A stretch of DNA of 64,000 nt from Yuukianura sp. NJ FZ-2021 (GCA_046563655.1 CM102290.1:6572001-6636000); one strand, 5' to 3'; numbered from the stretch's first letter, positions 13,733 to 60,700 are shown. The notes: generated by a model not told the origin, from the sequence alone. Program-made: numbers and translations.

Positions 13733-13740
13733 GAACAAAC

Positions 13741-14187: not shown

Positions 14188-14202
14188 ACAGCAACAAAGA
14201 AA

Positions 14203-16070: not shown

Positions 16071-16164
16071 AAACAACCAAAAAACGCCTTGTTTTTTAAT
16101 GCTGCACAACACTCACAATGGAGCTTTTATTTTTCAAAAGCCTTATTCCTTAAAAATAATATTT

Positions 16165-16620: not shown

Positions 16621-16731
16621 GATTTTATACCCCGCACAAAACGTACAGACAACGACTTTTTATTCAAATCGAAAAGGGGAGACAGCGAAACGTTTACAAT
16701 TCAGAAATAGGCATGAATCATATAGTGACGA

Positions 16732-20479: not shown

Positions 20480-20937
20480 GGTTTTTTCTTCTTTTTTTTT
20501 TACGACAGAGATTGACAGCACAAACTCAACTTACTTTCAAATTAACTTTCAACTTACAACAAACCTCTTTATATCTTACGAACGAGGCGGACTTAAAAAC
20601 CAAAGCATTTAGAAATTGTGCAACTAAACAAAATACTCCATCGGGGTCGAAGGTTGGAATCCTAACGCTCCAAACAATTGTCACAGTGTCACAAGGACAG
20701 AAACTACAAATTTCTGTCCACATCCCAAAAGCATGCCAAGGACGTCCAACACTCAAATTAACATCATGTTTTGTCATGTGAATGACTCAGTTTTCAGATA
20801 TCTGATTTCAACAACAAAATGTCGTCAAGAACTGGCACAGCAAACTTACGATCTGACTTAACTTAAAAACTTAACGATCTTAACTTAACCTTTTCGTGAG
20901 TCACCCCCACAGACCAAAAACGCGCGAACGAATCCAG

Positions 20938-21038
20938 AACGTTTGACCTCAACCTTGCGTTCTTCCTAACTGACTCAACTCCCTCCGCAAAACGAATCCG
21001 GAACGTTTTACGTTCTTCGCGGAACTTACCATTCTACT
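20938..21038 (-). repeat. Right TIR of Maverick 1
   Basis: Reverse complement of 3150-3250; ends ATTCTACT followed by TSD CATGTC. Confidence 0.97.
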
Positions 21039-21154
21039 CATGTCATTCCCACTGACCTACTTCAGATTTCCAGCATAAAGCACGAATCAGCCAGCAGAAC
21101 TGAGATGGAATTTTCCCATCTCGGTTCTACTAGCTAAACTAAGGTTATTACTAA

Positions 21155-24100
21155 AGCCACATCACACTCTTCTGCATATTAACAACGAATTTGTTCCTTT
21201 CACAAACCAGGTAACCAATTCTAATGCTCATTTGACTAATCCGTCTACTTCTGTTCCCACATCCAGTTGTAATCACAACTCCGGCCATGGGGTCCTACTT
21301 GGAACTGCAGAAGTCTACGTAATGGATGCTACTGGAGCCTACCAAACCTGCCGTGTCCTTTTCGATCCAGGAGCTGAGGTTTCCTTTAGCACCGATCGGT
21401 GCTGTCAGCGACTTGGTCTCTCACAGACAAAGTCCAACGTCGCCATCAACGGAGTTGGTGCCACAACAGTTGGTAAAGCAAAGGGAAAAACAATTTTGAA
21501 AATCAAATATATGTGTAATGATTTTACGTTGTCGGTGGAAGCTTTTGTTCTCTCCCAGGTCACAGGTCAACTGCCCTCATTTAGGTGTGGTGACACCTGG
21601 AAAGAATGGACCCACCTTCAGAATCTGACCTTGGCTGACCCCAGATACATTGACCCGAGGGAAGTTGACATTGTACTTGGGGCTGAGGTCACACACCGAA
21701 TTTTCACTGGTCAGACTCTTTCTTCTCGGGTTGATCAACCCGCTGCTTGTTCGAGCCACTTCGGTTGGGTGGTCATGGGACCTGTCCATACTCCACCAGT
21801 GCAGTCTTACACGGCCCACTGCCACACAGTCTCTCTGGATGGAGCCATTCAACGCTTGCGGGAACTCGATCACGTCCCAACTCGGATGCAGTTGACACAA
21901 GAGGAGAGTGACGCAGAGAACCACTTTACAACTCATCACTCTCGTACACAGGATGGAAGATACATTGTTCCACTTCCATTCAAACCCAACATTTCGGAAC
22001 TCGGATCATCACGATCAATTGCATTACGGAGACTCCACCACACTGAACGTCGGCTGGATCGACTCCCGCAACACAAAAGTGAGTACGTAAAATTCATGAA
22101 TGATTATCTCAATTTAGGTCACATGGAACAAGTCCCAGCATCGGAAGAAGGAGAACAATTCAAGATGGATCCATCCAGACGTAGTACCTCCCACATCACT
22201 TCGTTTTGAAGGAGGATAGTACAACAACCAAACTTCGTGTGGTGTTTGATGGTTCGTGTGAATCAAATTCAGGTTTGTCACTTAACAAGTGCCTAATGGT
22301 AGAACCAACTATTCAACCTGATTTATTTACACATCTAATCAAATTCCGATTGGATCCAATCGTTTTAAAGGCTGACATAACAAAAATGTATCGCCAGTTC
22401 TCAGTTTTAGAGTCAGACTCCAACTTCCAGCGGATCCTTTGGCGGCCAACTCCTGATCAGCCTATTCGGGAGTACAGGCTAAAAACAATCACTTATGGAA
22501 CCTCCTCGGCTCCATTCGGTGCCATTCTGGCCCTCAACCAACTTGCTCTGGACGAAGGAAATTACTTTCCCTTGGCCAGGCAAGCAATAATTGAGCGTTT
22601 TTATGTAGATGACTTTTTAGGTGGTGACTCATCAGTTCCAAAAGTGGTGGAAACTTACCACCAATTCACCAAACTACTCGCTCGTGGACAACTGTCAATA
22701 ACTAAGTGGACTTCAAACTCTCCGGAAGTCCTGCAGGAGATTCCTTCACACCTAGTGGAAATCTCCACTCAATCACTGGCGGAGGGATCAAGCACAAAGG
22801 CATTGGGCGTTCAGTGGACTCCAAATTCTTATCTTCTCCATTTCACTGGATTTAGGTTTAACCAAACCTCGGTAATAACAAAACGTACCATTTTAAGTGA
22901 CATCGCAAAGTTATTTGATCCACTGGCGCTACTCGCTCCATTCGTCGTGTCGGTAAAAGTTTTCTTCCAGAGTCTGTGGACCTTGGGAATTGGTTGGGAT
23001 GATAACCTGCCCGAGGACTTGGTAGAAAGGTGGTCCCACCTTGGCTCATCATTGTCATGTCTTAGTGACATTGCCATTCCATTACACCAAATTACCAACG
23101 AATGGAATTACATGGGTTTTCGGATGCCTCCGAAAGAGCCTATTGTGCCGTGGTCTACCTCAGGACATTTGATAACGATCTACCAATATCACGAATTCTC
23201 ACTTCCAAGACTAAAGTAGCTCCTGTCATAGCACAGAGCATTCCTAGGCTAGAACTTTGTGGTGCTTTGTTATTATCAAAACTAATTTCTTTCCTTTTGT
23301 CTAGTTTGGATCCAAACTGTCATGTCTACTGTTGGACTGACAATGAAATTACTTTGCGTTGGATCTCGTCTTCTTCTCGTCGCTGGGTCCCATTCGTGGC
23401 CAATTGGGTTTCGCAAATCCAAGAGCCCACACCAGTCGAATCTTGGCATTTCATTCCTGGGACACTCAACCCTGCCGATTGCGGAACAAGAGGGATCCCT
23501 CTTAATGAGCTTGTCGACAATCAGCTCTGGTGGAACGGACCGGAGTTTCTTTCACAACCACAATTACCTTCGTTCTCCAGTTCACAATCACTCTCATCTG
23601 AGCATCTGAAGGAAGAACGTAAGGTCAAGGTCCTAACTATTCAAGTGTCTTTTCCCATATTGAACAGGTATTCGTCATTTTTGCAACTCCTACGTGTCAT
23701 CGGGTCACTTCTCGGGTTTGTGCTGAGAGCTCAGCAGAAGTCGGCACCGACGTCACGCTCAGTCGAGTTCTACCGAATGGCCACTCGGAAGGTCATTCAA
23801 CTGTCACAACAGGAACACTTCCAAGAGGAGATCCAGTCTCTGACTGAAAACGGTAAAGTAAAACAATCCAGTTCGTTGCTCTCTCTTTCCCTATTTTTGG
23901 ATTCGGATGGATCTCTTCGTGTCGGTGGACGGCTCCACCTGGCATCGCTCCCAGAAGCTGCCAAACACCCTCTGATCATTCACGGAAAGTCTTCAGTCAC
24001 TAAACTACTTGTCCAGCATTACCACCACAAGCATCATCATGCTGGGAATCGTCTTCTGCTCTCACTTCTACGCCAAGATTATTGGATTGTCCACGCACGA

Positions 24101-25123
24101 GATTTGATCAAATCTGTCATCTCTCGCTGCCTCAGATGTAAGCTGTTGAGACAAAAGACGGCAACACAACTCATGGGTACACTGCCTCAACCAAGAGTCA
24201 CGATGTCACCTACGTTTCATCACACTGGTTTGGACTACGCTGGTCCATTTACACTCCAATCTGTCAAAGGACGAGGCCAAAAACAATTCAAGGGCTACTT
24301 CTGCATCTTCATCTGTCTCTCTACGGAAGCCGTTCACGTGGAGTTCGGAACCGAACTGTCGACCGAATCCTTCCTCGGCAGTTTCAAACAGTTTGTATCA
24401 CGTCGGGGTAACCCACTACATTTGTATTCTGATTGTGGTGCAAATTTTGTAGGTGCTAATAACGAGTTGATGGATTTGGTGAGCTCTCACCAGTTCAACT
24501 CGGAAGTTTCTTCTTACTTTGCAGAATCACAGACACATTGGCATTTCAATCCTCCGTCTGCTCCTCATCATGGTGGAATCTGGGAGGCAGCAGTACGTTC
24601 TGTCAAATTTCATTTGAAGAGGATCATTGGGACCACCACTTCAACGCTTGAGGAATTTGCAACAGTTCTTTGCCAAGCGGAGGCAGCGCTGAACTCCCGA
24701 CCTCTTCTACCGATGTCCAGTGACACGTCCGATTTAGGTGTGATCACACCGGGCCACTTCCTCGTCGGCAGACCTCTCCTCGCCGCTCTTCAACCAGATC
24801 ATGCTGATGTCAAGGTCAATCGCCTCTCACGTTGGCTGTTGCAGGAGAAGCTATTCCAAACGTTCTGGAAGGTCTGGTCACTCGAATACCTCACATCCCT
24901 TCAACAACGAGTAAAGTGGACCAAGAAAACCAACAACTTGACAATCGGAGATCTCGTGGCCATCAAAGATGACAATTTACCCCCTCTAAAGTGGAAACTG
25001 GCTCGCGTCATCAACGTTCATCCTGGTCCAGACGGACTAGTCAGAGTCGTCACTCTTCGTACGGCCCTCGGAGAACTCCAACGCCCTGTAGCGTCTCGGA
25101 CCGCTACTATCCCCAAAATATGA
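21155..25123 (+). mobile_element. Degenerate BEL/Pao LTR retrotransposon pol region (end of gag, protease, RT, RNase H, integrase), 5'-truncated and frameshifted
   Basis: HHTLLH (end of gag knuckle), LFDPGAEVSF, TTKLRVVFDGS, YVDD, LHGFSDAS, IPRLELCGA, DYAGP, SDCGANF, GGIWEAAV. Split into three ORFs by frameshifts near 22200 and 23090. Confidence 0.93.
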
Positions 25124-37012: not shown

Positions 37013-38408
37013 GATCAACAATTTGAAATTTTTGAGAAGAGTTTGTTCTTCTAGAATAAACCTTGAGACCTAACCTTGAATCGTCGTTTCTAACTGCTTT
37101 GGCACAGACATCGGAATTGGTCATCTACAATCCAGGCTACATTCTTTGTTCTCCTGTAACAAGGTGCAGTAACATGTTTTTCCTACTTCAAGGAGAACTG
37201 ATTGTCCGCAGCAAGACAAATATGCAGCACATTTCCGCACTTCGTCCTGCTGGTTGTATAATTGGAGAGATTAACCTCCTCTTCTCAATTCCATATGACC
37301 ATCAAATCGAAACTAAAGTAAGTTTTATGCTTTTATGCTTCAATATTATGAAAAAAATAACCAACGTTACTCAAATTTGATAAATTCTAAAATCAATCAA
37401 TTAGTTTATTTGACTTTGGCAATTGCCTTACCAAGTTACATTTTGTTTCGAGAGGGGATCTAATCGTATTCAGTAGTATGTAAGGTAAAAGTAATTTAAA
37501 ATATTAGCCTTGAGAACTCAGAATTTCAAGTGTATGAGGGTCAATCAAGAGTAGAAGTAGATATTTTGTGTAATCGGTTGTCTTTAGCTTCCGGTTGAAC
37601 CAAGGTTTCTATAGCAACGGAATAGTTGTTGCTTCATAAGGTTAAGCAATACCTCGGTTTTTATATTTTTCCTTCCAAAATTGCAAAAATGAAAAAACAT
37701 CAGGGCAAGACATTCACTCTGATTCACTCTGGGTGAAGCGTGGGTGAAAAAAAAAGTTTGGAGCGAGATTTTTGGAAAACAAGACTTAGGTAGGTTAGGG
37801 TGCATTCGCATTTAGACAAAAAAAGAAACTTCGTTTAACTTAGAAGGAGAGTCGGAAGGTGGCACATGTAATTTTAGGGAGAGAATTGGAATTTCAGATA
37901 CTTTAAACTAATGAGAATTAAGGAGAATTAAGGTATCAGAGAGCTGTTCCTCCAGGACGCGGCGGCTGGTGTACCGGGTGCACGTGGACGGGTTCTAGGT
38001 TCGTTTTGTCTTGCTTCACGTTTCTTCTGTCTATCCATTCTAGTTTCAGCGGTGAGGTATTCGGTTATGGAGTAGATTTCTTTTTGGTTAATGAGTGTTT
38101 TTCTAAGTTGAAGGGCTTGCATTCTGAAAGAGTAGGTCGGGAACCGCACTTTGATTGGCCGAGGCTTGTTAGACGAGTTTGGTTTTCCTAATCGGTACGC
38201 ATCTTCTATGTTCACCCGAACTTTGTAGTTCTTAAAGAATTCATTTGCGACACTAACATAACCTAACCTATAAATTCTAAAAAAAATGTAATTTTTCTGT
38301 ATTTTCAGTATGTCTGTCTGTCAAGCACTGATGATTAGCAGCGAATCGCTTTTTCAACTACTGGAACTTTTTCCGCATCTTGTGCAAGTTCTTCGAGAAA
38401 AGTTTGGG
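37013..38408 (+). pseudogene. Cyclic-nucleotide-binding-domain gene fragment (CNG/HCN-like)
   Basis: SFLTALAQ..ELVIYNPG...MFFLLQGEL...GCIIGEINLLF, and a later exon CQALMISSESLFQLLELFP. The next exon is hit by element 2. Confidence 0.65.
37928..38215 (-). mobile_element. LINE ORF1-like (RRM/CTD) fragment in an intron
   Basis: IEDAYRLGK...PRPIKVRF...ITEYLT...R pattern. Confidence 0.6.
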
Positions 38409-38466
38409 GTGAGAACATTCTTACTTGCGAAGTTCTCCAATTTCAATGGACTTTTTTCAAAGTGTC

Positions 38467-38543
38467 AGTAGTAGCCTAGAAGGGACTTTCACGCCAAATC
38501 GACCTTTGGACCCATAAGGTTTAAAACCACTGGCGTGAGATCC
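38467..38543 (+). repeat. Left TIR of element 2
   Basis: Reverse complement of 48850-48926 with one mismatch. Confidence 0.97.
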
Positions 38544-39041
38544 AAGTAGGACAAATCCTGAAGGACAAATTAAGGACAAATTAGTTAAGACTAATTGACG
38601 CTTCCTGTCACCGAGTTAATTAGCACTTCCTGTTGGCTTTAACCTACACAAAATCCCTTAATTGGTAATTTCCGATCTCGGACTTAATTTTTGGTGTTAA
38701 GCCACAATTTTCGAAATCCCGCCAAAAATTTTGTACATAAACCTTCGAGCCAAATTTCAAAAAAAAAAAAAAAAAAAATTAGTGAATATTAATTAATTAA
38801 ACACTTCATGTTGGCAAGATGCTTCCTAATGCCCTGACAGCCTTGTTCTAGTTTTACCTTTAACACCATCGACTCAAATCAACCTTTGCCCCCAATGTGT
38901 GTACAGGATGAGTTAACTCACAACTTTACAACATTGTTCACAACATCTAACAAAGAACCAATAACACAAAAAGAAAGGACTAGTCACAAAATTGTTCTAA
39001 TCATTTTTTATTTCAAATTTTTATTAACATTTGTAAATCCA

Positions 39042-39740
39042 TTATACAGGAGTATTTTTGGTTAGCACACCATGAAATATGATGCTGTCAATTACATCAG
39101 CACTGTACGGCTTCATTCGAAGTTCCTCATGCGTAGAATACATGCTACGTGTAGAACTCTCCATAACAAAGGTTCTTCGACGGATCTGAAATTGTTGGTG
39201 CTTTGTCAAATCCAGCAAATGGGTGGTATACAGTTCTCGAATGTGTTGATTTGTTTGTGGACAGCAGCAATTAGGACGATCGAAAACACTTCCATGGTTT
39301 TCTTTATTTCGACACTTATTCAAAGCCAATTCGCGTAGATCCTTCAAGTAGCTTCGCTTTGCTTCATGGATAACTCTATCCAAAGATTCGTCCAAATACG
39401 AAGTTGGAAATGATTTTAGAAGTCTCCCAACCAAATGCGGAATTTGATCCAATTTTATATAAGCAGCGCCACACGCTCGAATTAGGAATACTTGATCATC
39501 TTGTCTTATGAAATGAATATCCGCTTCTCCGAATTTCTGAATTGAATCTACCTGACTCGCCTTCTTACGATTTTGAGCCAGAATTTTTTCAAAATACGGT
39601 AGGCCAGCCATCATTTTTCCCGCCCCAATGTATACAACGACTAACTTCTCAACCACCGTCGTCAGTTCCTTCTCAGCAAAAGTAATGGAAAAAGATGAAT
39701 TTCTGACTTCAATACCGGATGAGGACGAAAGTACTTCCAT
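39042..39740 (-). CDS. Orphan protein A (232 aa, C...NCCC motif), paralog of 40119-42698
   Basis: Intact ORF sharing ELxTVVExLV, LPxFxKxLxQNR, IHFI, LDxIPxLV, FPxxYLxESLDxxIHExKRxY, NCCC and LDxTKHQQ with the split paralog. Confidence 0.85.
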   Translation of the reverse strand: MEVLSSSSGIEVRNSSFSITFAEKELTTVVEKLVVVYIGAGKMMAGLPYFEKILAQNRKKASQVDSIQKFGEADIHFIRQDDQVFLIRACGAAYIKLDQIPHLVGRLLKSFPTSYLDESLDRVIHEAKRSYLKDLRELALNKCRNKENHGSVFDRPNCCCPQTNQHIRELYTTHLLDLTKHQQFQIRRRTFVMESSTRSMYSTHEELRMKPYSADVIDSIIFHGVLTKNTPV

Positions 39741-40267
39741 GTTGAACTAATTTAAACTGATCGTCTAAAACAGCCGTTCAGAGTTCCTTCTTCTCAGGAC
39801 TAGACGAGACTAAGTAAAACCAGTTAAGACTTCCAGTTAAGCACTAATTGGGACTAATTGATTTTCTTTTTTGTCCGTTAGCACTGGGTGGAGCTACCCC
39901 CGACAAATCCTTGGGATTGCCTCTTGTACAAAAACGTTTTTGTACAAATACCCTTTTAATGAACATGTGATTAGAGGGAATTTAATGCCATCCACATTCA
40001 GCGCAGCACCCAGTGGTACCTATACAGTTCAGACATCATCAGTTTTACTATTGTCCTAAATTTGTTACTATTGTCCTAAAGTTTACAGTTGCTTTTACAT
40101 ATTTGCAGCATACCAAGGATGGACGTAAACCTGCCGGAAGTCTATCTAAGCAAGGGTCTTATTGCCGTCAAGAATTCTGGAAATTCAATTATGTTTTTAT
40201 CCGAGGAGCTACAAACCGTTGTAGAAGAACTAGTCAAAGCATATATTGAAGAAGGGAGGATGATTAA

Positions 40268-42164
40268 CTCCCTACCTCACCATACTTCCAGACTGCATTC
40301 CGGCGAAAACAAACTGACAGTTGTCACCCAGAACGATTTCGGCAAAAACGTCCATATTTTTTAAATTAAAATATTAAAAAAAAAAAAAAATTTTTTTGAA
40401 AATTTTTACTCCGACGTCATTTCATGTCGCAAGTGAAAATTCACGTCGCGAATTTTCGCGTCGCGCGAGGCGACGCGAATTTTCACAGAAAATGCAAATT
40501 TGATGCTCAGTCGCTACTACGGCGACACCCACAGCGATGGGACGCAATTTCCCGTCGCGCGTGAAATTTCACGTCGCGAATGGCGACATCCGCGAATTTT
40601 CGCGTCGCGCGAGGCGACGCGAATTTTCACAGAAAAAACAAATTTGATGCTCAGTCGCTACTACGGCGACACCCACAGCGATGGGACGCGATTTCCGGTC
40701 GCGCGTGAAATTTCACGTCGCGAATGGCGACATCCGCGAATTTTCGCGTCGCGCGAGGCGACGCGAATTTTCACAGAAAATGCAAATTTGATGCTCAGTT
40801 GCACTACGGCGACACTCACAGCGATGGGACGCGATTTCCGGTCGCGCGTGAAATTTCACGTCGCGAATAGCGACATCTGCGAAATAGGTCAAAAACTAAA
40901 AACCGATGTCGGCAGGTGTTATGCGTGACAACGGAATTGTCCTAAGCCGTTTCCAGACTCACGCGAAATTTCACGTCGCGTACGCCGCGAGTCGTGAATT
41001 TTCGCGTCGCGCCTGGCGACGCGAATTTGGTAGAAAATTGCCCATTTGTTACTCAGCTGTACTCACGGCGACACCAACAAGGATGCGACGCCATTTTCGG
41101 TCGCACGTGAAATTTACGTCGTTGTACGTCGCGAACGGTGATATCAGCGTTTTTTACGAAAATGCGCATTTGATGCTAGACACGTTCAGAGCGTACCTGT
41201 GGTATTGTGAAGCCATGCTTCACTGACGCGAATTTTTGCGTCGCGGATGGCTACGCGAATTTTCCCTTTCGCGACGCAAAATTTCGCGTACGACCGGAAA
41301 TGGCGTCGCATTTCTGTTGGTGTCGCCTTCAGTACAGCTGAGTAACAAAAAGGCAATTTTCTGTAAAAATTCGCGTGTCGCCAGGCGCGACGCGAAAATT
41401 CACGACTCGCGGCGTACGCGACGTGAAATTTCGCGTACGACTGGAAACGGCTTAGGATCAATTCCGTTGCCACGCATAACACCTGCCGACATCGGTTTTT
41501 AGTTTTTGACCTATTTCGCAGATGTCGCTATTCGCGACGTGAAATTTCACGCGCGACCGGAAATCGCGTCCCATCGCTGTGAATGTCGCCGTAGTGCAAC
41601 TGAGCATCAAATTTGCATTTTCTGTGAAAATTCGCGTCGCCTCGCCCGACGCGAAAATTCGCGGATGTCGCCTTTCGCGACGTGAAATTTCACGTGCGAC
41701 CGAATATGGCGTCATCCTATAGTTGTCGTGCGCATAAAATCTGTTCGTCGATTTGCCTTTTAGCACATGGCCAAGGGTGGCGCAATTCGCGACGTGGAAT
41801 TTTCACGTTCAATACGTTTGTGCAAAAAATTCAAAATCGTTTGAAAAACGTAATTTAGGGTGTTTTCATCATTTTCCAATTTTTGAAAAAAATTGGTTCA
41901 GAATTTCAAAAATTTTATACCGCTGTAAGAATTGAGTTTCTTTGTCAGAAAAGCTCAAATCCAGCCCAAAAACAGCAATTTTCACTTCAAGAAATCCCGA
42001 AAAATTGAAATTTGTCGAAAAAAATCAAAAAACGTTTGAAAAACGTAATTTAGGGTGTTTTCGTGAAATTTCAATTTTTTGAAAAAAATTGGTTCAGAAT
42101 TTCAAAAATTGTATGTAGGGAGAAAATCGTGGGTGATAATTGTCATCATGATTGGCAGTGTTGT
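40268..42164 (+). mobile_element. Non-coding insertion with Helentron/Helitron2-like ends and a large internal palindrome
   Basis: CTCCCTAC at 40268 with its inverse GTAGGGAG at 42115-42122, hairpin 42125-42153, ATTAA at both junctions; internal 144-bp repeats and about 420-bp inverted arms. Confidence 0.55.
40434..41701. repeat. CpG-rich 144-bp tandem units arranged as a long inverted repeat
   Basis: Unit marker TGATGCTCAG at 40501, 40645 and 40789; about 40696-41115 is the reverse complement of about 41279-41701. Confidence 0.92.
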
Positions 42165-42765
42165 ATTAAGCATCTTCCACATTTTGGGAAGCTGTTATTG
42201 CAGAACCGTAATAATGCAGCAAAGCAAAATGAATACTCGCCGGATGAACCACTACTCCCGATTCATTTTATCAAGGACGCATCAGCTCGTGTCATCCTTA
42301 TCCGAAGCGGCGCGCCTGTTATGATCGATTTGGACCATATTCCCCAGCTGGTTGAGTCACTTCTAAAATGTGGATGTTTTCCTATTACATATTTGGAGGA
42401 ATCTTTGGACATGCTGATTCATGAAACTAAACGCGGCTACATCGAGAAACTCCGCAATGAGGCGTTCCGATCCTGTCACAACAAATTGGAAATTGATCCT
42501 TGCAGGAGCATTTTTGGCGAGTTCAACTGTTGCTGCACAGCAACTAATACATCAAACTACAGTCAACATGTATTGGACGTTACTAAACACCAGCAAATGG
42601 AAATTAACAGATGGAAATGGGGAATAGATAGTTTCTATGGTAAGAGAGAACTTGCTGTACTTGAGAGTATTCGACTAAGAAATATTCCACTGACTTAATC
42701 TGGAAAATTACATTTCATGGCAAAAGAGATTGCTAAACGGTCTTTATTCAAGTCAAATAAAATTA

Positions 42766-43530
42766 TCAATTATTTCTGTACACAGTACATCCAACATCGG
42801 GAAATATATTATTGCGGATTCTAAACCTATCATCCTGGGATTGGTGTAGGTCGATAAATACATGACCATACTGTTTTTTCATAACGTCGTCATAGCATGT
42901 TTCCAAAGCTTCGTTCCGTTTTCCGTTTTTTGTTAGCTGACGTCCAAAGCAGAGAACTTGAGAGACTTCTCGAGGATTTTTGGTGAAACAAACATACTGG
43001 CAATTTGTAGTTATCGTTCGTTGTCCTTTCTCGAAGAAGCTTTGGGTAACGAAAATTATGCTCACATTCCTGTGATGACTCGTTCGAGTAAATGCAGAGA
43101 CGATATCCTTACTAGCACAAACTTCATGCATAAGATCGTCAAGTACGACGATTCGATGAGTGTTGTAGGGGCTCGCAAAATCGTCTGGTAATCCGTAGTG
43201 AAATTTAATTGTTGGGATGTGACTTTTCAGATCCTGAAAAAATTCAATCTCTGGCTCCCCATAACAATACAGGATATCATTAATCGGAACATCCACCATT
43301 TCAAAACGTCGAAGGAGTAATTCCTTAAGAACCGTCGACTTTCCACTTTGGCTTGCTCCGCTAATTGTCATGCAGAATGGCGCCTTTAGCCTATAATCAA
43401 AACACTCATCACGTTCCGCCATGGTACGATGTTCCGCTGTAGTTTCATCGGTTTGCTTATGTGCAGTGTATACATGGCGTTTAAGGTTATCCGAACGTGT
43501 GAACGTACTGTTGCAAACACTACAATCCAT
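42766..43530 (-). CDS. Maverick-type packaging ATPase with an N-terminal C2H2 zinc finger (254 aa)
   Basis: CSVCNSTFTRSDNLKRHVYTAH, then GASQSGKS, VVLDD, SHHRNVSIIFVTQ and KNPRE; clearly homologous to 8896-9555. Confidence 0.92.
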   Translation of the reverse strand: MDCSVCNSTFTRSDNLKRHVYTAHKQTDETTAEHRTMAERDECFDYRLKAPFCMTISGASQSGKSTVLKELLLRRFEMVDVPINDILYCYGEPEIEFFQDLKSHIPTIKFHYGLPDDFASPYNTHRIVVLDDLMHEVCASKDIVSAFTRTSHHRNVSIIFVTQSFFEKGQRTITTNCQYVCFTKNPREVSQVLCFGRQLTKNGKRNEALETCYDDVMKKQYGHVFIDLHQSQDDRFRIRNNIFPDVGCTVYRNN

Positions 43531-43558
43531 GCTGTTGTGAATACTGAAACACAAATGC

Positions 43559-43760
43559 TTTATATACACCACCACCACCAGTCTTGCTAGGAGGAGGAGG
43601 AGGAGGAGGAGGAGGAGGAGGAGTAGGAGGAGGAGGAGGAGGAGGAGGAGGAGGAGGAGGAGGAGGAGGAGAGGAGGAGAGGAGGAGGAGGAGGAGGAGG
43701 TACCACCACCACCACCACCACCACTATAAAACTGTTGCAATCGGATAAAAATGTTCAGTT
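43559..43760. promoter_or_regulatory. Bidirectional promoter: two outward-facing TATA boxes bracketing (CAC)n-(GAG)n-(CAC)n arrays
   Basis: TATATAAA on minus (43566-43559); TATAAAA on plus (43725-43731) with TCAGTT initiator about 30 nt downstream; GAG tract 43589-43700; CAC tracts 43567-43580 and 43702-43724. Confidence 0.7.
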
Positions 43761-43773
43761 GCATTTGTACATC

Positions 43774-44223
43774 ATGCCTGTTTACTGTGACATTTGTTCC
43801 AAGTCATTTTCCCGCGCAGACGCATTAAATCGACATAATCGCGTTGCTCATTCAGACGAAGCTATGGATTCAGACTCAGAAACGGAAACTGAAGCAGAAA
43901 CGGAAACTGAAGAAGAAGAAGAAGAAGATGACTCTAAGTCACATTGTGGCATGAGTAAATCCAGCTTATCGTTAATCCTTCATGCACTACAAAATGCGGA
44001 TATTGGAGTTCAACGGCTGACTTTGGACAGCTTACGCAAGCTTGTGGAAGGCGCAGACGATTCTGATTCTGATTCAGATGATGATGATGATGATGAATCA
44101 TCCGACAAGTTGGATTCAAGTCAATTAGATTATTTAATAGCCGTTGTAAAAGCCGGAATAAGAAATGTTATCAATATTAACACAGCAGAATTTTTAAAAA
44201 TGCTGAATAAAATGATTTTATAA
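43774..44223 (+). CDS. C2H2 zinc finger + duplicated acidic/helical module protein (149 aa)
   Basis: CDICSKSFSRADALNRHNRVAH followed by two D/E/S tracts, each preceding a similar amphipathic helical segment. Confidence 0.85.
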   Translation: MPVYCDICSKSFSRADALNRHNRVAHSDEAMDSDSETETEAETETEEEEEEDDSKSHCGMSKSSLSLILHALQNADIGVQRLTLDSLRKLVEGADDSDSDSDDDDDDESSDKLDSSQLDYLIAVVKAGIRNVININTAEFLKMLNKMIL

Positions 44224-44290
44224 ACTTTTATTGTTTTCAGCTTGGACTAATCACCTAAAATCTGTATTTTTTCACACATGTCAAAATAAA

Positions 44291-47200
44291 TTATTGAGAA
44301 ATATCTCTATGTCCAAATGCTAAAGTGTTAATTCTATCAACACCATATCGTTTGGTATCTAAACCGTTCAGAGCCCTTTTTAACGTTACTTCTGTGAAAA
44401 TTCTATGTTCCACACTTCTAAATCCTCTCATCCATACACGAGTTTGAACATCTTCCTTGAGGACTTTCTCAAAATCTTCATATGCTATTTGGTTGTTGAC
44501 AGCTGTTTTAGTTATTCCTTTGACTTTCTTCGTGCATTCGTCTTTGATGAACCAGCTGCCGTCAGTCTTCTTTTGGTAAATATTTTTCCCATCAAATCCT
44601 TTGCAGACTTGAAGTTTCAAGGATCTAATGGTGTACATTTTTGGACGAGGACAAACGACGTGAGTGACTACCGAACCGGCAGCTTCATCTTTGAATTTTC
44701 CCAAAACTTTCTTGTTGGTGGGGTCGTGAAACTCTCCAAAGATGGGGTGATCGGGTTCATATTCGCTCATGTCATACAAGTCCTTGTCATGGAGCATGTC
44801 TTGGTATACATCGTCAGTTTGGATGTGATAGATGAAGGAATCTGAAATAAAAAGTTAGCTTTAGTTTAAAGTTAAATTATTGAATAGTATAACATTTACC
44901 TGTGTCAGTATAAATAAGGCGACACTTCTCGACGCCGTATTTCGCCTGTATAGTGTAGTGATGTCGATACATGATGCTCTTTGCCAGTTCAAGCACTGTT
45001 ACCCCCGTAAATATCGGTTTGTTCAAAGTAACTTGAAGTCTCTTCATCATAAAGATGCATGTTGACTCGTTAATTGGGATGACATTCTGGACGGTGGGTT
45101 TCTTGTTGTAACGTAGAGCTTCTTCCATTGATGTAACGATACGAACATTCTGACGCTTGCGTACTTGCTCAATGGTTTTACCAAACGCAGAGTTGTTGAG
45201 GAGTTTCCAATAATCCTTTTCAAAGTCTGACTTTGCCTTTTTTCTCATTTCGGTGTTAAAGTCGATAAAGTCCTTCATCCATGGTCTCTGCTTGAAGGAA
45301 ATTCCGCGGTGAAGTTTTGTAACTTTAACTCCAAGCTTCAGGTACTCCATCAAAATGGCGTGATGTAGAATATAGTTTTTCTTATTGTTTAGATCTGCCA
45401 CAAGTTTCTTAACTTTGAAAATTCCAGGACCTGTGTCGAGTTTTTCCGTCAATTGTATTTGGTGACTGGACAGCTCGCTCTGTGCAACTGTACGGTTAAC
45501 TGGAGCTGGAGGAAAATCATTCAGCTTGTCATGCAATAAAGGGTCAATTTCCAAATCGACTTCAACCATGTATCCTTTTTCATCGTTCATGATAAAATGG
45601 TTTTCTTGAAGTTTCATCAACTCCTCTTCTGTTAGCCAGCGAAATTGTCCAGTTGGAAGCGGAAGACTCATGCTTTTGCCCTAGTGAAAAACGTTAGATA
45701 ATAATTTTTCATGGACGTTGGATACCAAAATGTTGAATACTCACATATAAGTTATTGGCATCGATGTAGAGGAGGTAACTGGATTCCTTTTCTGGATTGT
45801 ATTCATCTCCCATGTACTTGTTGTTTGCTCTTGCCTCTCGCATTGATCCGACGCTAACGTATCCACCTATAAATAAAATGAATCAGAAAATGTCTTCCAA
45901 TTGGTTAAGTTTATAGGTTTTACCTCTAATAGCATGCTCCAGCCAGCAATGCATGGTTGGATCCGTGATTAGCTCCAATTCGACTCCTGATTTCTTGAGA
46001 ACGCAGTCCATCGCCATTATAGGTAACGAGAAATAATGGGCCAGGTCCAATTCGTAAGCATCAAACATTATTTTTCGGATTCCTTCCATCACATCAGCCA
46101 GAAGCGATACATCTAGCCTGACGTACAAGTCATGCCAATCTCCCATGTCTTGAATGTTGAAGCTTTTCCAGACTTTCTGAGCGTGTTGATAAGCGGCATT
46201 ATCAATGTGTGATTCCGCCAAGTCATTGTAGAAATCTTCTTTTGGTGGTAGATTTTTGATTTTGAAATCCTTGCAAGACTTCATGAGGGAATAAGGGTAA
46301 ACACCCTTTTCGAAGAGAAGTTCAATGTCATCGTGTTGTGCAAACTCTTGTCTTGTGATTGGAAATTTTGCATTGGGATCAGCTCGCATCACTTTGACAA
46401 GTTTGTCTAATGATTTCAATGTAAATCCAAGACTGTCTGTAAACCTCAGCTTGAAGGGTTTCTTCTGCCAGCGAGGTGGTTCTTCGTCCTCATCGAAATC
46501 ATCGTGGTACGCAGGAACAATGCTCAGCGACATGTATTTTTCACTGCTCTTAGGGATAACAGTGATGTCCTTGATGATTCCGTCTTGTCTGAGCTTTCCA
46601 GCCGATTGCACAATGAAGTGAACATCATATGATGAGAAGTTATGCATAAAGACGGGAAACTCCTATTTGATTTGCGCTTGGAGGTTACAGTCTTGGTGAG
46701 CCATCCCGATGTAGTTGAACGGTGGAAGATGTGAATGGTGTCGTACTTTAGTTCCATCCAATGGCTTCTTGCAGAAACAACAATGTTTTTCAATGGCAGC
46801 AGCACTTCTTTGCGTTGGAGTCAGATTTAACATGTCTGGAGCAATTTTTTCGTAGTACCGAACTTCCTCTTCCAGTGTTTTGGAGTACTCAGTTATGCTC
46901 TGAATGAATTTGGCGGCAACGTCTTCATCATCGTTGGTGATATGATAATATTCACCATGTCGTCGTTTTCCATTGAAGTCCACGCAAACCCATGCATATC
47001 CACACGGCTTGTGTAGGTGAGTGCAACACTTATTTACAGGTTGAACTGGTCTTCCACGTATCTCTTCTTTGAGTTGTCGGCGCTCTTCCTCTTCTATAGT
47101 TGATGGATTAAACTTTGGGAGGAATGCTTCAAAGTCTGCGTAGAACCGAAATGGAACTGGCTGAGTTCTGGCCCAGTTGTTGAAAGTCAATTTGTTGTCA

Positions 47201-48555
47201 GTAGGATACACAACTTTTTGAAGATCTAAGGAAGCGCAATACTGGATGTGGTCCTGAAGAGTGTGAGCTGATTGAAAATTGGAGAGGCAGTTGCGACAAA
47301 TATGCTTCACTTTGTGATCATTCGGGGCTCTCATTAAAGCTTCAAGGTTTCGAATCAGGATGAAGTGTGCGTTGTTTCCTTGCATTAGACACATCAAGTC
47401 GACATGTATGTCTTTCGACTGTTGAGAATTGTACAGTAATGAAATCTTGCTTTGTATAAAATTGAATGATTCAATTTTGCTCAGCTTCTGTAAAATCATG
47501 TCATCACCATCCATGTCATAACCAAGAACGGTTATAGAAATGTTCGGGTTGAGTTCTTCAAAGTGAGGGATCTGCTCCAAAGTCATCGGAAAATGGAGTC
47601 CTTTAGTGTTCAACTTGTATTCATGTGGCTGGTATGTTTTCACTAGCTTGTCAATACGGCACCTATGATTGTTTCCACCAGCTGGAATGCCACCGATTTT
47701 GTCATGAGCGAGCACTGACCAGATGAAGCATTTGTTGTGGGAATCGTCCATTGACACTTTGCTGTTGTTGATGTTAAGAAGAACTTTTTGAGTCGATAGT
47801 GGGTATGGGGTATCCATGTATGTACCAATCTTGGTGAATTGATACTTTGAAGTGACAAATCCAAATTTCAAAATGGAATCCAGAGTCCAGCCGCTTCCTT
47901 CATTTGTGAAGTCTTCAATTTGATCTGACATTTGGTTGCACATGATTGACCAAACTTTAGGTAGCATGTTTGCATTGAAGACAAGGTGTCGATATGATGT
48001 GAATCCAGCATCTTTTGATTCAACTGTTCCATCTGCGTGTGTCTTTATGAAGTGACACCCCAAGGTAAAAAATATCCTTAGGTTCTTCCATCTGGAGATG
48101 TCTTCTTGGATGACTTCATATGATGATTGCTTCACATTTGCGAAAAAATCTCTCTCGTCGACACCTTCACCGCATTGAAATGCATCATGTTCTGCCAAAT
48201 ACTTCCGACTCATTTTCAGAGATTCCAACACTAGTTTTACAGTTATTAGATCTGTTGACACTCCTCCGCCATCTTGAATGTTGAAGTCTGGGTGAGTTGT
48301 GTAGAAATGTTCTTGAAGTTTATTCCGGCAATTAAATGAAAGTCCACAAGTATAGCAAAACAAATGGCGATATTCTTGTAGAATACTCTCGTTTGTGACA
48401 TCGTAACCTGGTGGAGCTGGTTCAAGACAGTTTTTATGGACTGTGTCAAAATGTAGTTTTAATAATGGTCGAGAGGTAAATCCATGAGCGCACAGTATGC
48501 AGTTAAAGAGTTTCTTGGATGGACCAACAATTGATGTTCCTTGGCGCTTCGACAT
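44291..48555 (-). CDS. polB: Protein-primed family B DNA polymerase, 4 exons, about 1361 codons, one in-frame TAG (46665-46663)
   Basis: Exons 48555-45924, 45866-45745, 45680-44900 and 44841-44291 splice in frame, restoring IRGG, YIDANNLYG and YTDTDS. Also YADFE, HNFSSYD, KLLNNSAFGK and two N-terminal C2H2 fingers. Confidence 0.94.
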
Positions 48556-48849
48556 TATGACAATAGCAAGTGTTTAGGACAATAAGAATCTTAGGACAAC
48601 TGAATATTTGAGGAGTTTTTCAGAGACTGAAAGTCTCCGAAAAAGTTGGTGGTATTATATCTCTAGTCAGAGCCGACCCCCTAAGCTGACCCCCTAAAAG
48701 AGTGGGTGAAGGTTTAGCCTTTTTCCTTCCTTTGTGTTAATTAGTTTTGGAAGTCTTAATTGGTCTTGAACGGAAGTGTTAATTAGTCTTAATTAATGTT
48801 CATGCTGGTCCCAGGAAGTCTTAATTAGTCTTAATTAATCTGACTTGTA

Positions 48850-48926
48850 GGATCTCACGCCAGTGGTTTTAAACCTTATGGGTCCAAAGGTCGATTTGGC
48901 GTGAAAGTCCCCTCTAGGCTACTACT
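48850..48926 (-). repeat. Right TIR of element 2
   Basis: Ends CTACTACT followed by TSD GTGTC. Confidence 0.97.
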
Positions 48927-49394
48927 GTGTCTCGTTTTGGAGTTACCGATTAACCGAAAAACTATCAAGAGACTACGAGTTTATTGGCACGTATCCGTTC
49001 CAGTATGCTGTGCGTAAAAAGGACCGGCAGTCCAAAAATCCAAGATACACTATGAGAAGGTTTGTCCCGATTTTTTGTTTCTGAAATATCTTCGGTATAT
49101 CAAAACATATTCGACATTTTTTTACTTTTTGTTGCAGAAAAGTCTTCATTCAAACAAGACGAGACGATGTTAGTGATGACTCTGCCAATACTTACATTAT
49201 GACCATGCCTACCTATGCTGGAGAACACACCAGAGTAAACAAACTTTTTAAAAACGATTTAGTTGAGTAATTAATTGATTTAGTGTTTGATTATCGTCCT
49301 TGTAGGATTATACTCGGACATACCGCTCATGTCGTCATGTCCTGTACCGATCATCCTGGCAAATTTTTCAAAATGTGAATTTTTTAAACTTACC

Positions 49395-49621
49395 AAACTA
49401 TGAGAGAACATAACTAAAGGAAAAGACGATAAGCGTCCATTTCCATTTTGAGTCGACGAGCGTCGTGAAAATACCGCGAATGTATCGGCGCGTCCGTTCA
49501 AACACGTTCACTTGGCGCGTATTGTAAACACCCGATTTTTGAAAATATCTGTTACGACAGTGCTCTGCGTCATCTAGCCCGCGGTCACGTCGTTGACCTT
49601 CAAATCTATCAGAGTAAAACC
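49395..49621 (-). pseudogene. Inward-rectifier K+ channel N-terminal exon (fragment)
   Basis: RYFQKSGVYN...RRYIRGIFTTLVDSKWKWTLIVFSFSYVLSW; pore exons not found. Confidence 0.75.
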
Positions 49622-50334
49622 TGTTAAAATGTAAATTACATAAATACATCATGTGTAATTCAAGCACAACCAATCACAATTAACATTGCGTTATTAAGTA
49701 GTAACCATCAATTACCGTTAAACGTAGCACCTTGAGCCACCAACTTAATTGGTTGTACTTTGTTATTGAGTTGAAACGGAGGACTGACTTGGATAAGTGC
49801 TGCATCGTAATCAACAGTTTGTCTGAAATTTCAAGAAAATTTTCAATTTCATTTCAAAATTTTTATGAAAGTATATAACTAAACAGCGACCAAACGTAGT
49901 CGAATTTTGACTTACGAATTGTACGACTTGTGTGTGATAACATGAACAGCGCTCCAAATTTGCTCGTTGCCATTTGGGTGAAGAAGGGGAAACTTGAATT
50001 AGTTTTGCTACAAAAATCCCTTCATACAGGACCACTCCACGAATTCTTAGTCCTTTCCCCTATCTCTTCCCCTAAGGAATTTACTCCCCACCAAAGAGAA
50101 AATTTTGACTGGGGGTAATAACGCACACGGTAGGATGACGTCGTAATCGTATCGTAACTTTGTTTACTTCTACTATTTAAAAAACACAAAACTGTTGAAT
50201 AACGTCGTTTGCTGTTTAGTTGTTCAGATGAGCGGATCAGCCTTTCAGACTTACTTACGTAGGTAGTGTGTCTTGTATTAGCCTTGGTGTTTTATTTCGT
50301 TCAACTGTCGTTACCTTCGTTTCAATTAGCTTAA

Positions 50335-57136: not shown

Positions 57137-57781
57137 TCACTTTTTTCCCCAGTTTCGCTTGGGAACTTTTTGCCACATTCCATATTGTGGCTTGGGTCTG
57201 ACTCCTGAGAGACTGCGGAGGAATTGCTCTGGAATTGGTGTTCTAGCGGTCGGTTCAAACCGGAAGTTGAGCACCGCCGCGGCGATTGCTACTTTTTCCT
57301 CGACCAATGCAAAGTGACTGACAGTACATGCGCGTTGACCAATCCCGAACGGGAGGTAGTGAGCTGGATGGCGATTGGCTCTTTCTTCGGCGGAAAATCG
57401 TTCCGGAATGAATCGGTTTGGCTCGGCATAGATGTCCGGATCATAGTGGATTGGCATCACAGGAATTATAATTCCGGTTCCCTTGACAATATTTAAGTCG
57501 GTTTTGGGCAGATTGTAGTCCATGGTACACCTTCTGGTTAACCGAAATGCTGGCGGGTACTTTCTCAAAGTTTCTGTAAAAAATATAATAATATATAATA
57601 TAATATAATATATAAAATCAAAGGTTACCTGACACCACCATATCCACATACGGTAGAGATGATAAGGTTTCATAATTCGGAGATTTTGCAACTCCGATTT
57701 CTGTCCAGCAGAATCCAACTCTTCAAATAATTTTTGCTGAACTTCAGGATTAACTGCCAGTTCGTACAAACAGAAATCCAG
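57137..57781 (-). pseudogene. Cytochrome P450 C-terminal fragment (CYP3-clan-like)
   Basis: YELAVNPEVQQKL, ETLRKYPP, PERF and heme motif FGIGQRAC; frameshift before the intron and no N-terminal half. Confidence 0.85.
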
Positions 57782-60700
57782 TAAAGCTTTGATACAACGA
57801 TTGTAATAGTTGGTTTAAAGACAGATTGCGTTTTGTTATATGAAGTCTCGATTTCTTCGCCTTGCTGAACCGTGACATGGGTCAAAAACTGTCCAATAGG
57901 AGATGCCAGTTCGTTCATAACCACTTCTTTTCTAATCCTGATTTTATCGTCATGCTGTTCATTCTCACAATTTGCACACTTGAAACAAATGAAAGCAATA
58001 ACAATTGTTATTCCGAACAACACGCCTTCCATTCTTAGTTTCAAAAAAGTTGATCTTGACTTCAACGTAGTTGAAAAAGGAATGGTAATTTTACCTGGAC
58101 TGGAGTTTATGATGTTTAAATGAATCAAAATGAGATGAAACGCTAGTGAACACAAACAAGCTCTATTCGTATTTTTGATAAAAATAGCTTAATCTCCTGC
58201 TTAGTCCTGCTCCTGACTCATTTCCGGGAAGGACCAAATTACTAGAACGTTTTTGAGAACTATGACTGTTGAAAAGTTTAATGGCTATTGTTGTTGTGAT
58301 GTGAAAGTAAAATGACACTTTTAGGGAAAAAATGTTCATCATTTTTCATTTAGTATTTTTCCTGTCTTTTAAAACAGCGCGCACATAATCCCGGCTTTTC
58401 GCAAATCTTCGTCGTTCAAGATGGTTTCCTCATCTTCCGCCTCAAGTTCTCCATTTAAAAAAAAACATGAAAATCTGAAAAAAATTCCCTCAATTCTTAC
58501 AATTAGTGTTTACTTCGCGCTCATTATCAAGCACATCGCAACTCCTTTCCGTCGTTTCGTAAAGCAACTCAATGAGGTTGTTCATGAAAATTCTTGTTTT
58601 ACATACATAAAACAAGAATTTTCATAGTTCCAATTCTGCAAAACAAAAATGTTATCAGTATCATAATCATTATGCTTTCATATTTCAAATTTCATAGCAT
58701 GGAATTGTGAAAACTTCATGATAGAAGAGAAATTTTTCTCCATTTCGCATTTTCAAAAGTGGCCATTTCCTGCGATGATTTTGAAAGTCAAGAAGTCTTG
58801 GCCTCTGCGTCTTTATCCTCTTAAATGCTGGACTAAAGTGGCTTTATTTGTAAGTGGATTGACATAGGTGACCCCGACTTCCGGACCTTACTGTAAAATA
58901 ATGTTTAGATTACGTACGATTTAGACTAACTTTAGCTTCATTTTGAAGATGAAGATGAGGGTTCAGGAACTCTCAAATAGGATTATGAGCTCAAAGTACG
59001 AAGTGTAGATGGACTAGATGTAGTTGCAGAGTGTAGATGGAGTTGATTTACTTAAGCAAATTAATCAAATAATTTCGCAGTAAAATTCTCAATTTCAAAA
59101 ATTTTATTTTAAATTCCATTTGAATACCTATGTTTTGAACAGAAACCATTTTTTTAAAGTTAGTTTCTTCTATTATTTTGTAGACATTTTGCCCATCAAA
59201 ACGTAAAATATTTTATGGGATGATGTATTGCCTAACTTTGTGCTTTTCAACCAGGAACTAATAATTGAAAATTGAAACAGCAAATTAGAATTTGATAAAT
59301 TTCATTTTCAAAATTTTACTGGATTGCCAAACCGGATACACATTTCCGATTTCCCTGCAAAATCTGGAGCTGACAATTTGATAGCCACCAATTTGATTTT
59401 CTTTTCCATGTTGTTGATCCATTTGGATGCTTGATCTTGCGGGTCAATGAGCAGAGGCCAACGTCAAGCATTGCTATGTCAACTGTTGCAAAAGACACTT
59501 TTAAAACTGGTGGTAATTAAATCAACTCGGCCAAGCCTGAATGATGTGTCTTCTTTACCTTTTGAAGTTGTCCATTGACTCCACATTATCCTGTAATCAC
59601 TTTAGCACAACTTCCTTGTCCTGGCTACCAGCAGCGGGTGGGGACAATGAAGCAGCGCGAAAATTTTAACGGGGGGGGGGGGGTGACAGGCGCGGCGCCA
59701 AAGTTTACTTCAACCGTTTGTGTAGAATTTGAACACGAGAAGATCACCGAATTTCGGGAAGTCAACATGAAATACGACAAAGAGAGTGTATTCAAATGTG
59801 CAAATTCTTCGTGACGCTTATTGAAGACAAGGGTCCGATGATCGTAGAACAATTGTTTCACCAAGTCCCAAGTCGGAGTTCAATTTGATGCTGGAGCTTT
59901 CGAAGGGATTTTCAAAAATCCGAATGAGTAAGAAATGAAATTTCGAAAACTCAAAATGTCAAACATTTTCACAATGTTTTCTTGATTATTTATAGCCTGG
60001 GAGTTTTACTTAAAATCCAGCCACAGTGCTTTCAGGTGATGATACTTATACCTTTTGACTTACTTTTATAATACTTATGCTGATTATGCTCTTATACCCC
60101 TGGAAACTCATTAATTCAATTTCAATTCCAGGTTCAGCACTCGAATCTGGTCACTTTATCAGCGACTTACTCAACGGAACTGGACATTCTGCATCGCCAA
60201 TGTGACAACGGACCGAAATTTAGAGTCCAGCCGGAAATGTCCAATACTTCCACGCCTGTTTCCGTATTATCAGGTCTCCGTCCTTTACTATAATTGCGCC
60301 AAACAATTTAGACCCGAACTTTTGGTTTGAGAGAAATACATCACAAACTCACACCTCTGTCAATTTTGCACCCATTCTTCTCGTCTCAACTCAGAAGTGA
60401 AGAATGAAATACTCAAAACAATAGCAAAACAACTTTCGTTTCCTTTTCGACAAATTCCTTGTTATCATTGTCAGACACTTCCGAAGTATTAAGATGGTTG
60501 CCAGCTTTCGCCAAAGTAATTATTATAGATTAATTATTCAGATTTTACCAATTACAACCGTCCCCATTCTCCTGTAGATTCTTCAGGTATTTATGGGGGT
60601 TCGGGATATACCTATCTTCGGGTATACTGATATATATGGTATACCGAGAAAGTAAAGAAAATCTCTCCCGCCAAAAATTCAAAACAATAACAGAAATAAC

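Follow-up and report, generated by a model that had tools for sequence, protein, structure and literature searches.

Boundaries and gene content of the element

The 64,000-nucleotide stretch of Yuukianura sp. NJ FZ-2021 DNA analyzed here (GCA_046563655.1 CM102290.1:6572001-6636000), referred to in full as the window, holds at positions 38467-48926 a 10.5-kb element of Maverick/Polinton ancestry with AGTAGT tips. It carries five genes in divergent and convergent pairs, namely two orphan genes (A and B), a packaging ATPase, a small C2H2 zinc-finger/acidic open reading frame (ORF), and a gene for a protein-primed DNA polymerase (pPolB). An initial annotation of this DNA had described the same five tightly packed genes, all of which were indeed located, and had read the element as one that replicates itself and keeps its own packaging motor, but borrows integrase and capsids from a helper Maverick. 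The analysis presented below bears out a transposed, Maverick-derived unit that belongs to a family, and points to its integration in trans; the self-replication of this particular copy did not stand.

The ends of the element were placed by repeat search, blastn and direct reading. The repeat search returned 38466-38543 and 48850-48927 as one long terminal inverted pair (78 nt, 99% complementary), and blastn gave terminal inverted repeats (TIRs) of 77 nt with a single mismatch, in agreement with the length and the AGTAGT ends that had been claimed for them. The left TIR (38467-38543, plus strand) opens AGTAGTAGCC, and the right one (48850-48926, minus strand) closes GGCTACTACT. Immediately outside the TIRs stand two copies of GTGTC, at 38462-38466 and 48927-48931, which were recognized by direct reading and by the joint of an empty site. 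The stretch occurs in five public DNA runs; a single sample of organism A accounts for four of these, and the remaining one comes from organism B. Four runs, designated X1-X4 (X4 being organism B), were compared over 37400-50000 of the window. In X3, two contigs join 38461 to 48927 with five letters that fit both sides, i.e., an exact empty site whose joint is a single copy of GTGTC, while the filled left junction is crossed by one X2 contig (37819-38511). A diverged empty site, in which 38423 is joined to 48948 with 61 letters between them, was seen in X1, X3 and X4, the last of which places this form of the insertion site in organism B. The GTGTC repeat, noted earlier as a perfect 5-bp duplication and now backed by the X3 joint, is a true target-site duplication (TSD); the whole unit was inserted via a 5-bp staggered cut, and the insertion is polymorphic in the organism A sample. 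Since the TIRs are nearly perfect, the TSD is exact, and an empty allele occurs in the same sample, the element moved as a unit. Overall, this is a genuine Maverick/Polinton-derived unit that was transposed into its site recently.

Just inside the TIRs, both ends carry short repeats. On the left, a subterminal repeat at 38577-38612 (plus strand) contains the motif TTAAGACTAATTGA at 38585-38598, a candidate protein-binding site; on the right, the repeats at 48772-48842 (minus strand) include two exact TTAAGACTAATTAA motifs, at 48779 and 48821. The TTAAGACTAATTRA motif has three exact matches in the window, every one of which is subterminal in the element and directed inward, and when up to two mismatches were allowed, 10 matches were found in the window against 2.1 expected. 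Judging from this placement, the TTAAGACTAATTRA motifs may be binding sites for whatever recognizes the element ends. An Rfam search of 38000-49400 matched no family.

It is to be noted that variant element tips are also present in the runs (loose end at 48916). Directly left of the element, the segment 37400-37820 is highly repeated, with a contig depth 10-30x that of its neighbors, and a contig joint connecting 37400 to 48831 on opposite strands recurs in three runs.

Without a nested insertion in orphan B, the element measures 8558 bp, which matches the earlier figure of about 8.6 kb. The genes, introns included, and the TIRs together occupy 7011 bp of this length, and the six non-coding gaps are of 498, 378, 67, 243, 67 and 294 bp. 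Pfam analysis of nine ORF pieces detected DNA_pol_B_2, Pox_A32 and C2H2 only, with no rve integrase, capsid or protease. Similarly, when 11 ORFs of Maverick 1, a 17.9-kb Maverick of the pPolB2 type in the same window (3150-21038), were compared with the element by tblastn, pPolB and the ATPase alone matched; the queries included the rve integrase but not the protease-like frame of Maverick 1 at 15537-16070. No double jelly-roll major capsid protein (MCP), penton or adenain-like protease was matched in the element by Pfam, tblastn or profile. Considering that the gaps do not exceed 498 bp, they are too short to hide remnants of integrase, capsid or protease genes, and all three lines of evidence thus agree with the earlier claim that no such remnant is present. 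By its predicted gene content, therefore, the element is a compact Maverick derivative without integrase or morphogenesis genes.

Polymerase, ATPase and orphan genes

The pPolB gene, recognized by PF03175 and by alignment to the Maverick 1 pPolB, extends from 48555 to 44291 on the minus strand and comprises 1361 codons. It consists of four exons (48555-45924, 45866-45745, 45680-44900 and 44841-44291), separated by three GT-AG introns of 57, 64 and 58 nt (45923-45867, 45744-45681 and 44899-44842, respectively), the third of which divides the YTDTDS motif (PolC). The product matches PF03175 (DNA_pol_B_2) with an E value of 5.5e-8, and aligns to residues 34-1289 of the 1308-aa Maverick 1 pPolB with 28-37% identity. 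The ExoI, ExoII, PolA, PolB and PolC motifs were all found in this alignment; we take YADFEA to be ExoI, HNFSSYD to be ExoII, DANNLY to be PolA, and NSAFGK to be PolB. From the N-terminus onward, the order is C2H2 fingers, a terminal protein (TP)-like region, ExoI, a putative HNH insertion, ExoII/III, and PolA/B/C. The HNH-type segment between ExoI and ExoII aligns to the Endonuclease_7-positive segment of Maverick 1 and also to P0002 and P0003, both of which carry Endonuclease_7, whereas the element's own segment had no Pfam match at E <= 0.1. On account of this HNH-type segment, the pPolBs of the element and of Maverick 1 were provisionally grouped with the pPolB2 class of Jeong et al. 2023 (PMC10748475).

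The N-terminal exon was additionally examined by structure prediction. A model of its 630 amino acids, with a predicted local distance difference test (pLDDT) score of 56, matched an adintovirus C2H2 protein in BFVD (E 5.5e-26), as well as BFVD pPolBs of MELD virus, bidnavirus-like viruses and adintoviruses. Its matches in the PDB were weak (E ~0.05-0.1, over ~100-119 columns), and nearly all were family-Y polymerases; this fits the homology between the Polinton terminal-protein domain and the little-finger domain, as described in PMC11161782. A search of metagenome and viral contigs with the same exon found no related locus.

The gene carries an in-frame TAG at 46663-46665 (minus strand), which falls between the HNH-type segment and ExoII, where the alignment with Maverick 1 is free of gaps and conserved. 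The initial annotation had overlooked this stop, as it had the three introns and the paralogy of orphans A and B. Because the stop precedes ExoII, the claim that the element replicates itself fails for this copy. Its pPolB has a nonsense codon and its orphan B is interrupted, and it is thus defective.

The packaging ATPase, of the A32/FtsK-HerA type, is encoded on the minus strand at 43530-42766. Its ORF of 254 aa is intact, starts with MDCSVC and bears an N-terminal C2H2 finger; Pfam matched zf-C2H2 as well as Pox_A32, the latter with a score of 24.0 against a gathering threshold of 22.8. The Walker A (GASQSGKST) and Walker B (VVLDDLM) motifs are invariant among 88 homologues. Identity to the Maverick 1 ATPase is 39%, and the closest relatives are P0007 (73%), P0010 (68%), P0008 (62%) and P0009 (60%), which, as called, begin after the finger. 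The C2H2-ATPase fusion also occurs in the more distant metagenomic ATPases P0011, P0012 and P0022, and the N-terminal zinc finger is, on this comparison, no hallmark of the compact form. Searches of viral contigs, with the single sequence and with the alignment, found no locus related to the ATPase, and those of genome contigs found only Polinton-like contigs in bacterial metagenome-assembled genomes, at 30-40% identity. The part of the earlier claim that an A32 ATPase is kept was upheld, as its ORF is intact, but its role as a retained packaging motor has a simpler explanation in position. In Maverick 1, the pPolB (4911-8837, 1308 aa) is followed by an adjacent and co-oriented ATPase (8887-9555), so that a single internal deletion in such a parent would retain the ATPase together with pPolB. 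The ATPase may therefore have been retained by position instead of selection.

Head to head with the ATPase lies the C2H2 zinc-finger/acidic ORF (43774-44223, plus strand; 149 aa; Pfam zf-C2H2), the finger of which is 43% identical to that of the ATPase; in other copies this ORF has an in-frame 9-nt indel at 43909. The divergent promoter region of the two genes contains an (AGG)n microsatellite (43581-43708), which is flanked by the two fingers in an arrangement that resembles an inverted duplication. The C2H2 fingers of the element map to 43459-43524 (ATPase), 43786-43851 (acidic ORF), and 48292-48501 and 47236-47298 (pPolB). In Maverick 1 they map to 4599-4664, 5040-5105 and 6105-6167; those in its pPolB match the element's in position, and its ATPase is without a finger.

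The orphan genes occupy the other arm of the element. Orphan A (39740-39042, minus strand) is an intact ORF of 232 aa and is blank in Pfam. Orphan B (plus strand) is split into an N-terminal part of 48 codons (40119-40262) and a C-terminal part of 177 codons (42165-42698) by an insertion of 1902 bp (40263-42164), a high-copy repeat with ATTAA on both sides. The joint from 40262 to 42165, with five shared letters, was found in contigs of X1-X4, and across it the orphan B frame continues in parallel to orphan A. The two are paralogous, with 52% identity over the N-terminal 42 aa and 42% over the C-terminal 177 aa. The nested insertion is made up in part of 144-bp tandem units (3 copies, 96% matches) and of an inverted pair (40685-40939 and 41459-41713; 255 nt, 97%) in palindromic arrangement, and no terminal inverted repeat was visible in it. 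The notion that its first ~100 nt are a diverged duplicate of orphan B was dropped, as there was no alignment at E <= 100.

Homology gave little guidance on the orphans. A homologue search returned no match at E <= 0.01 among 259 candidates, a profile of A and B had no match at E <= 10 among PDB sequences, and the ESM Atlas offered no useful neighbor, its best score of 0.77 being a lead only. Profile searches gave no match to a capsid protein or a recombinase, identities that the initial annotation had named as contrary to its reading, and the AlphaFold2 model of the orphans has a pLDDT of 35.8, i.e., is unreliable. A very divergent small structural protein may nonetheless be among these products of ~230 aa. 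Several candidate matches were rejected. An exhaustive HMMER search with the A and B profile produced two, and both were repeat artefacts: one aligned a 23-residue stretch to tetratricopeptide (TPR) repeats in P0006, and the other an 18-residue stretch of a 2527-aa protein that had no BLASTP alignment. The metagenome locus L001, retrieved by a scan with the A and B alignment, matched a 14-residue pattern alone. Between A and B, a scan for bacterial-type promoters detected nothing, the scan type being unsuited to a eukaryote.

These two regions of the element, namely the HNH segment and the orphan pair, are also where an integration activity of its own would have to be sought. If the element were an autonomous minimal transposon, integrated by the HNH nuclease of pPolB or by a recombinase encoded in orphans A and B, a helper would be unneeded. 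In keeping with this, the HNH-type insertion aligns to a segment of Maverick 1 that is positive for Endonuclease_7, and the orphans are paralogous, intact or recently intact, and had no assignment from the searches. We nevertheless consider it highly improbable, since the 5-bp TSD and the AG...CT termini are the signature of an rve integrase, Maverick 1 has an rve gene in addition to its HNH insertion, and the HNH segment of the element is below Pfam significance; moreover, the residues invariant between A and B do not form a pattern resembling DDE along the first predicted strand, albeit in an unreliable model.

A family of copies and its relation to other elements

The number of contigs that aligned to the element region was 584, 1180, 965 and 235 in X1-X4, respectively, with identities of 88-100% that ranged in class from 99+ to under 90. 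The contig depth of pPolB differs from that of the other parts of the element, which was not read as copy number. In organism B, where the site is empty, contigs nonetheless covered the region from which A and B diverge (39739-40060), an orphan B that lacks the insertion (40130-40262 joined to 42165-42362), the 3' part of the ATPase (42740-43074), and the segment in which the C2H2 ORF and pPolB converge (43953-44333). These results document a multi-copy family that occurs in two organisms. In further copies represented in the runs, each TIR has a 1-nt insertion, at sites that mirror each other (38526 and 48864); the two TIRs of such copies have thus changed in step.

The same data bear on the suggestion that the element is a dead, one-off rearranged fragment of a Maverick, its multi-copy signal being due to full-length Mavericks that share the pPolB. 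The two disabling lesions of this copy fit such a fragment, as does the larger number of distinct contigs over pPolB than over the other parts. A mere fragment is, however, improbable: the nearly perfect TIRs, the exact TSD and the empty allele in the same sample mark a unit that moved; the organism B contigs extend over orphans A and B, the insertion-free orphan B, and the junction of the C2H2 ORF with pPolB; and the 1-nt insertions of the TIR variants match between left and right.

A comparison of non-synonymous and synonymous change (dN/dS) among copies, which the initial annotation had proposed, was made on the best-supported 40 of 1073 listed differences between this copy and others, a small sample picked by support. 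In this set, 34 of the 40 fell in the coding sequence of pPolB, 21 being synonymous and 13 non-synonymous, which is an excess of synonymous change over the 20% of sites that are synonymous (binomial p = 1.7e-7); 22 of the 34 were at codon position 3 (p = 1.8e-4), and the resulting dN/dS proxy was 0.16. The ATPase contributed a single difference, which was synonymous, and the C2H2 ORF two, both non-synonymous. Of four listed coding indel events, three keep the frame (one of 9 nt, one of 3 nt, and a +1/-1 pair 6 nt apart). For the listed variants, therefore, the pPolB of the family is under purifying selection, and its function must matter somewhere in the family.

Taken together, these findings are best explained by a multi-copy family of Maverick/Polinton derivatives, the element among them, that are non-autonomous and are inserted in trans by an rve-type integrase, which we regard as probable. 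The element encodes no integrase, yet the TSD and the empty site reveal a true insertion, from which it follows that integration is supplied in trans; the earlier proposal of a borrowed integrase is thereby strengthened. Such a derivative would have kept one arm of a pPolB2-class Maverick, consisting of the TIR, the HNH-bearing pPolB and the adjoining A32 ATPase, to which the small C2H2 gene and the paralogous, cargo-like orphan pair would be joined, and would have lost the integrase and the whole capsid/protease module. The simplest origin would be a single event, either an internal deletion or a recombination, in a full-length parent that had pPolB beside the ATPase, with the orphan pair as the cargo next to the other TIR. 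Insertion would then be due to a related element with 5-bp duplications, which would have supplied its rve-type integrase.

Maverick 1 is unlikely to be that helper. Its TIRs (3150-3250 and 20938-21038) are 101 nt long with AGTAGAATGG ends, and its TSD is the 6-bp CATGTC; the ends and the TSD length agree with the initial annotation. The TSDs thus differ in length (5 versus 6 bp), and the TIRs share the AGTAG tip and no other similarity, in accord with the earlier view that the helper may be of another family.

Several points weigh against a family of such derivatives. The five-gene layout is matched in other copies by short contig pieces only, and not from end to end. The selection signal may partly reflect the pPolB genes of full-length relatives, and distinct contigs per position number up to 12 in pPolB as compared with 2-4 in the ATPase and 2-7 at the left end. 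Both pPolB and the ATPase have diverged strongly from their Maverick 1 counterparts, and the pPolB has introns, which makes the element no fresh deletion of the co-resident Maverick seen here. Lastly, the ATPase ORF and its motifs are intact despite the two other lesions, and this fits selection for ATPase function as well.

The last point leads to the possibility of a true Maverick satellite, one that replicates by its own TP-pPolB, uses the capsids and integrase of a helper, and has been selected as a stable five-gene genome. We hold this to be unlikely, and equally so the more specific proposal that the C2H2-ATPase, perhaps with the C2H2/acidic protein bound to the TTAAGACTAATTRA repeats, loads the DNA into helper capsids. 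Purifying selection on the family pPolB would agree with a satellite, as would the intact ATPase ORF and Walker motifs in a copy with two other lesions, the likeness of the pPolB N-terminal exon to the N-terminal regions of adintovirus and Polinton pPolBs (its weak family-Y matches fitting a TP domain), the confinement of the exact subterminal motifs to the two ends, and the polymorphic insertion of a family found in two organisms. In addition, the capsid-less Polintons described in PMC4028283 lost the ATPase jointly with MCP and protease, so that retention of an ATPase in the absence of a capsid is unusual. On the other hand, the stop truncates the pPolB of this copy, the position of the ATPase beside pPolB accounts for its retention, the C2H2-ATPase fusion is shared with more distant relatives, and Maverick 1 as a helper differs in TSD length and TIR; the variants in the ATPase and the C2H2 ORF, one and two among the best-supported 40 of 1073, are too few to gauge selection on these genes. 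A version in which the family forms a stable satellite genome of Mavericks, its fast-evolving orphan pair acting on the helper or the host, is more doubtful still.

The favored reading, of a non-autonomous derivative inserted in trans, also determines where the element stands among known systems. Autonomous Polintons/Mavericks are defined by pPolB together with a retrovirus-like integrase (PMC5499653). Against the Polinton definition, the element has the pPolB, the A32 ATPase, the TIRs and a TSD in the range of 5-8 bp, but lacks the rve integrase and the morphogenesis module; its pPolB is counted as present although the gene of this copy carries one in-frame stop. It also has the attributes of a non-autonomous DNA transposon, i.e., no integrase of its own together with a TSD and an empty site.

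The nearest comparison is with the pPolB2-class Polintons of terrestrial nematodes, as these are described in PMC10748475 and 10.1101/2022.07.12.499685. These have an HNH-type insertion between ExoI and ExoII, where the element has a putative one. An A32-type ATPase, AG...CT tips and a 5-6 bp TSD are further common traits (PMC10748475), as are cargo-like genes adjacent to a TIR (10.1101/2022.07.12.499685); indeed, Widen et al. reported that cargo regions adjoin a TIR (10.1101/2022.07.12.499685). Unlike them, the element is without rve integrase, capsid proteins, protease and fusogen (PMC10748475), is 8.6 kb long without the nested insertion as compared with 13-25 kb, and has TIRs of 77 nt as against the quoted 100-1500 bp (PMC10748475). 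Its pPolB is only 28-37% identical to the neighboring pPolB2-type gene, and has three introns. It is to be noted that the search by Jeong et al. 2023 accepted loci with 5 or more Polinton proteins in a span of 20 kb (PMC10748475), and another nematode survey demanded pPolB plus integrase (PMC11414722). With filters of this kind, as stated in those papers, forms like the present element would be missed.

Reduced Polintons of other kinds have been described. Krupovic, Bamford and Koonin (2014) reported nine capsid-less Polintons, in which MCP, protease and ATPase were lost together (PMC4028283). These resemble the element in lacking a capsid gene and in belonging to a virus-transposon continuum, but in them the integrase is kept and the ATPase gone, and in the element it is the reverse. 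Zhang et al. (2024) found pPolB1 with a TIR, but without an integrase, at ten loci of C. elegans, which they described as remnants (PMC11414722). The element likewise has a Polinton polymerase end with a TIR and no integrase; compared with these loci, as they are presented there, it has both TIRs and a TSD, carries additional genes, has an empty allele, and is related to copies of a second organism. The transpovirons of giant viruses are also TIR-bounded, at ~7 kb. They encode a TP-vOTU-palm fused to a superfamily 1 helicase, with no exonuclease (PMC11161782; PMC5499653). In contrast, the element has a full pPolB with exonuclease motifs, has no helicase, and is chromosomal with a TSD.

A search of the PMC10748475 supplement for two TIR tips and 'TSD' gave none, which is a weak negative as the long cells of that supplement were partly covered. 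In the literature considered, within a scope that excluded Repbase entries, we found no description of a TIR- and TSD-bounded Polinton derivative that keeps pPolB and ATPase without integrase or capsid. Repbase-type collections do include entries for non-autonomous Polintons. Among phages, P4 and the phage-inducible chromosomal islands (PICI) are small, helper-dependent satellites with replication gene(s) of their own; transpovirons depend on a helper in a like manner, and the element, known here from its DNA sequence, would resemble both in concept.

Mavericks and Polintons have usually been treated as all-or-nothing, virus-like transposons, and the surveys, as far as their published filters go, favor near-complete elements. 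A mobile, multi-copy derivative would mean that the superfamily also yields structured non-autonomous lineages. If the ATPase and polymerase were selected within compact copies, hyperparasitism by satellites among the endogenous DNA viruses of animals would have to be considered, and such elements could also serve as vehicles in the gene transfer by Mavericks that has been described in nematodes. Were the satellite reading true, the element would be the first animal counterpart of the P4/PICI phage satellites. The orphan paralogs are candidates for new cargo functions.

Maverick 1 and other features of the window

Beyond its ATPase, Maverick 1 encodes the rve integrase, followed by a Peptidase_C5 remnant at 15537-16070. 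Between its left TIR and pPolB lies an ORF (3633-4328) with BIR and RING domains, similar to inhibitor-of-apoptosis proteins (IAP) and resembling apoptosis-inhibitor cargo. Several frames of Maverick 1 are split by in-frame stops, e.g., 9562-10071/10072-11079 and 13660-14187/14188-14559/14560-15549, and the element as a whole appears to be partly decayed. The right TIR of Maverick 1 is adjoined at 21079-25123 by ORFs of a BEL/Pao-type long terminal repeat (LTR) retrotransposon (Peptidase_A17, an integrase zinc-binding domain, and DUF5641). On the other side of the element, the C-terminal exon or exons of a cytochrome P450 were recognized on the minus strand at 57137-57814 (Pfam p450, E 2e-36), which is an ordinary host gene.

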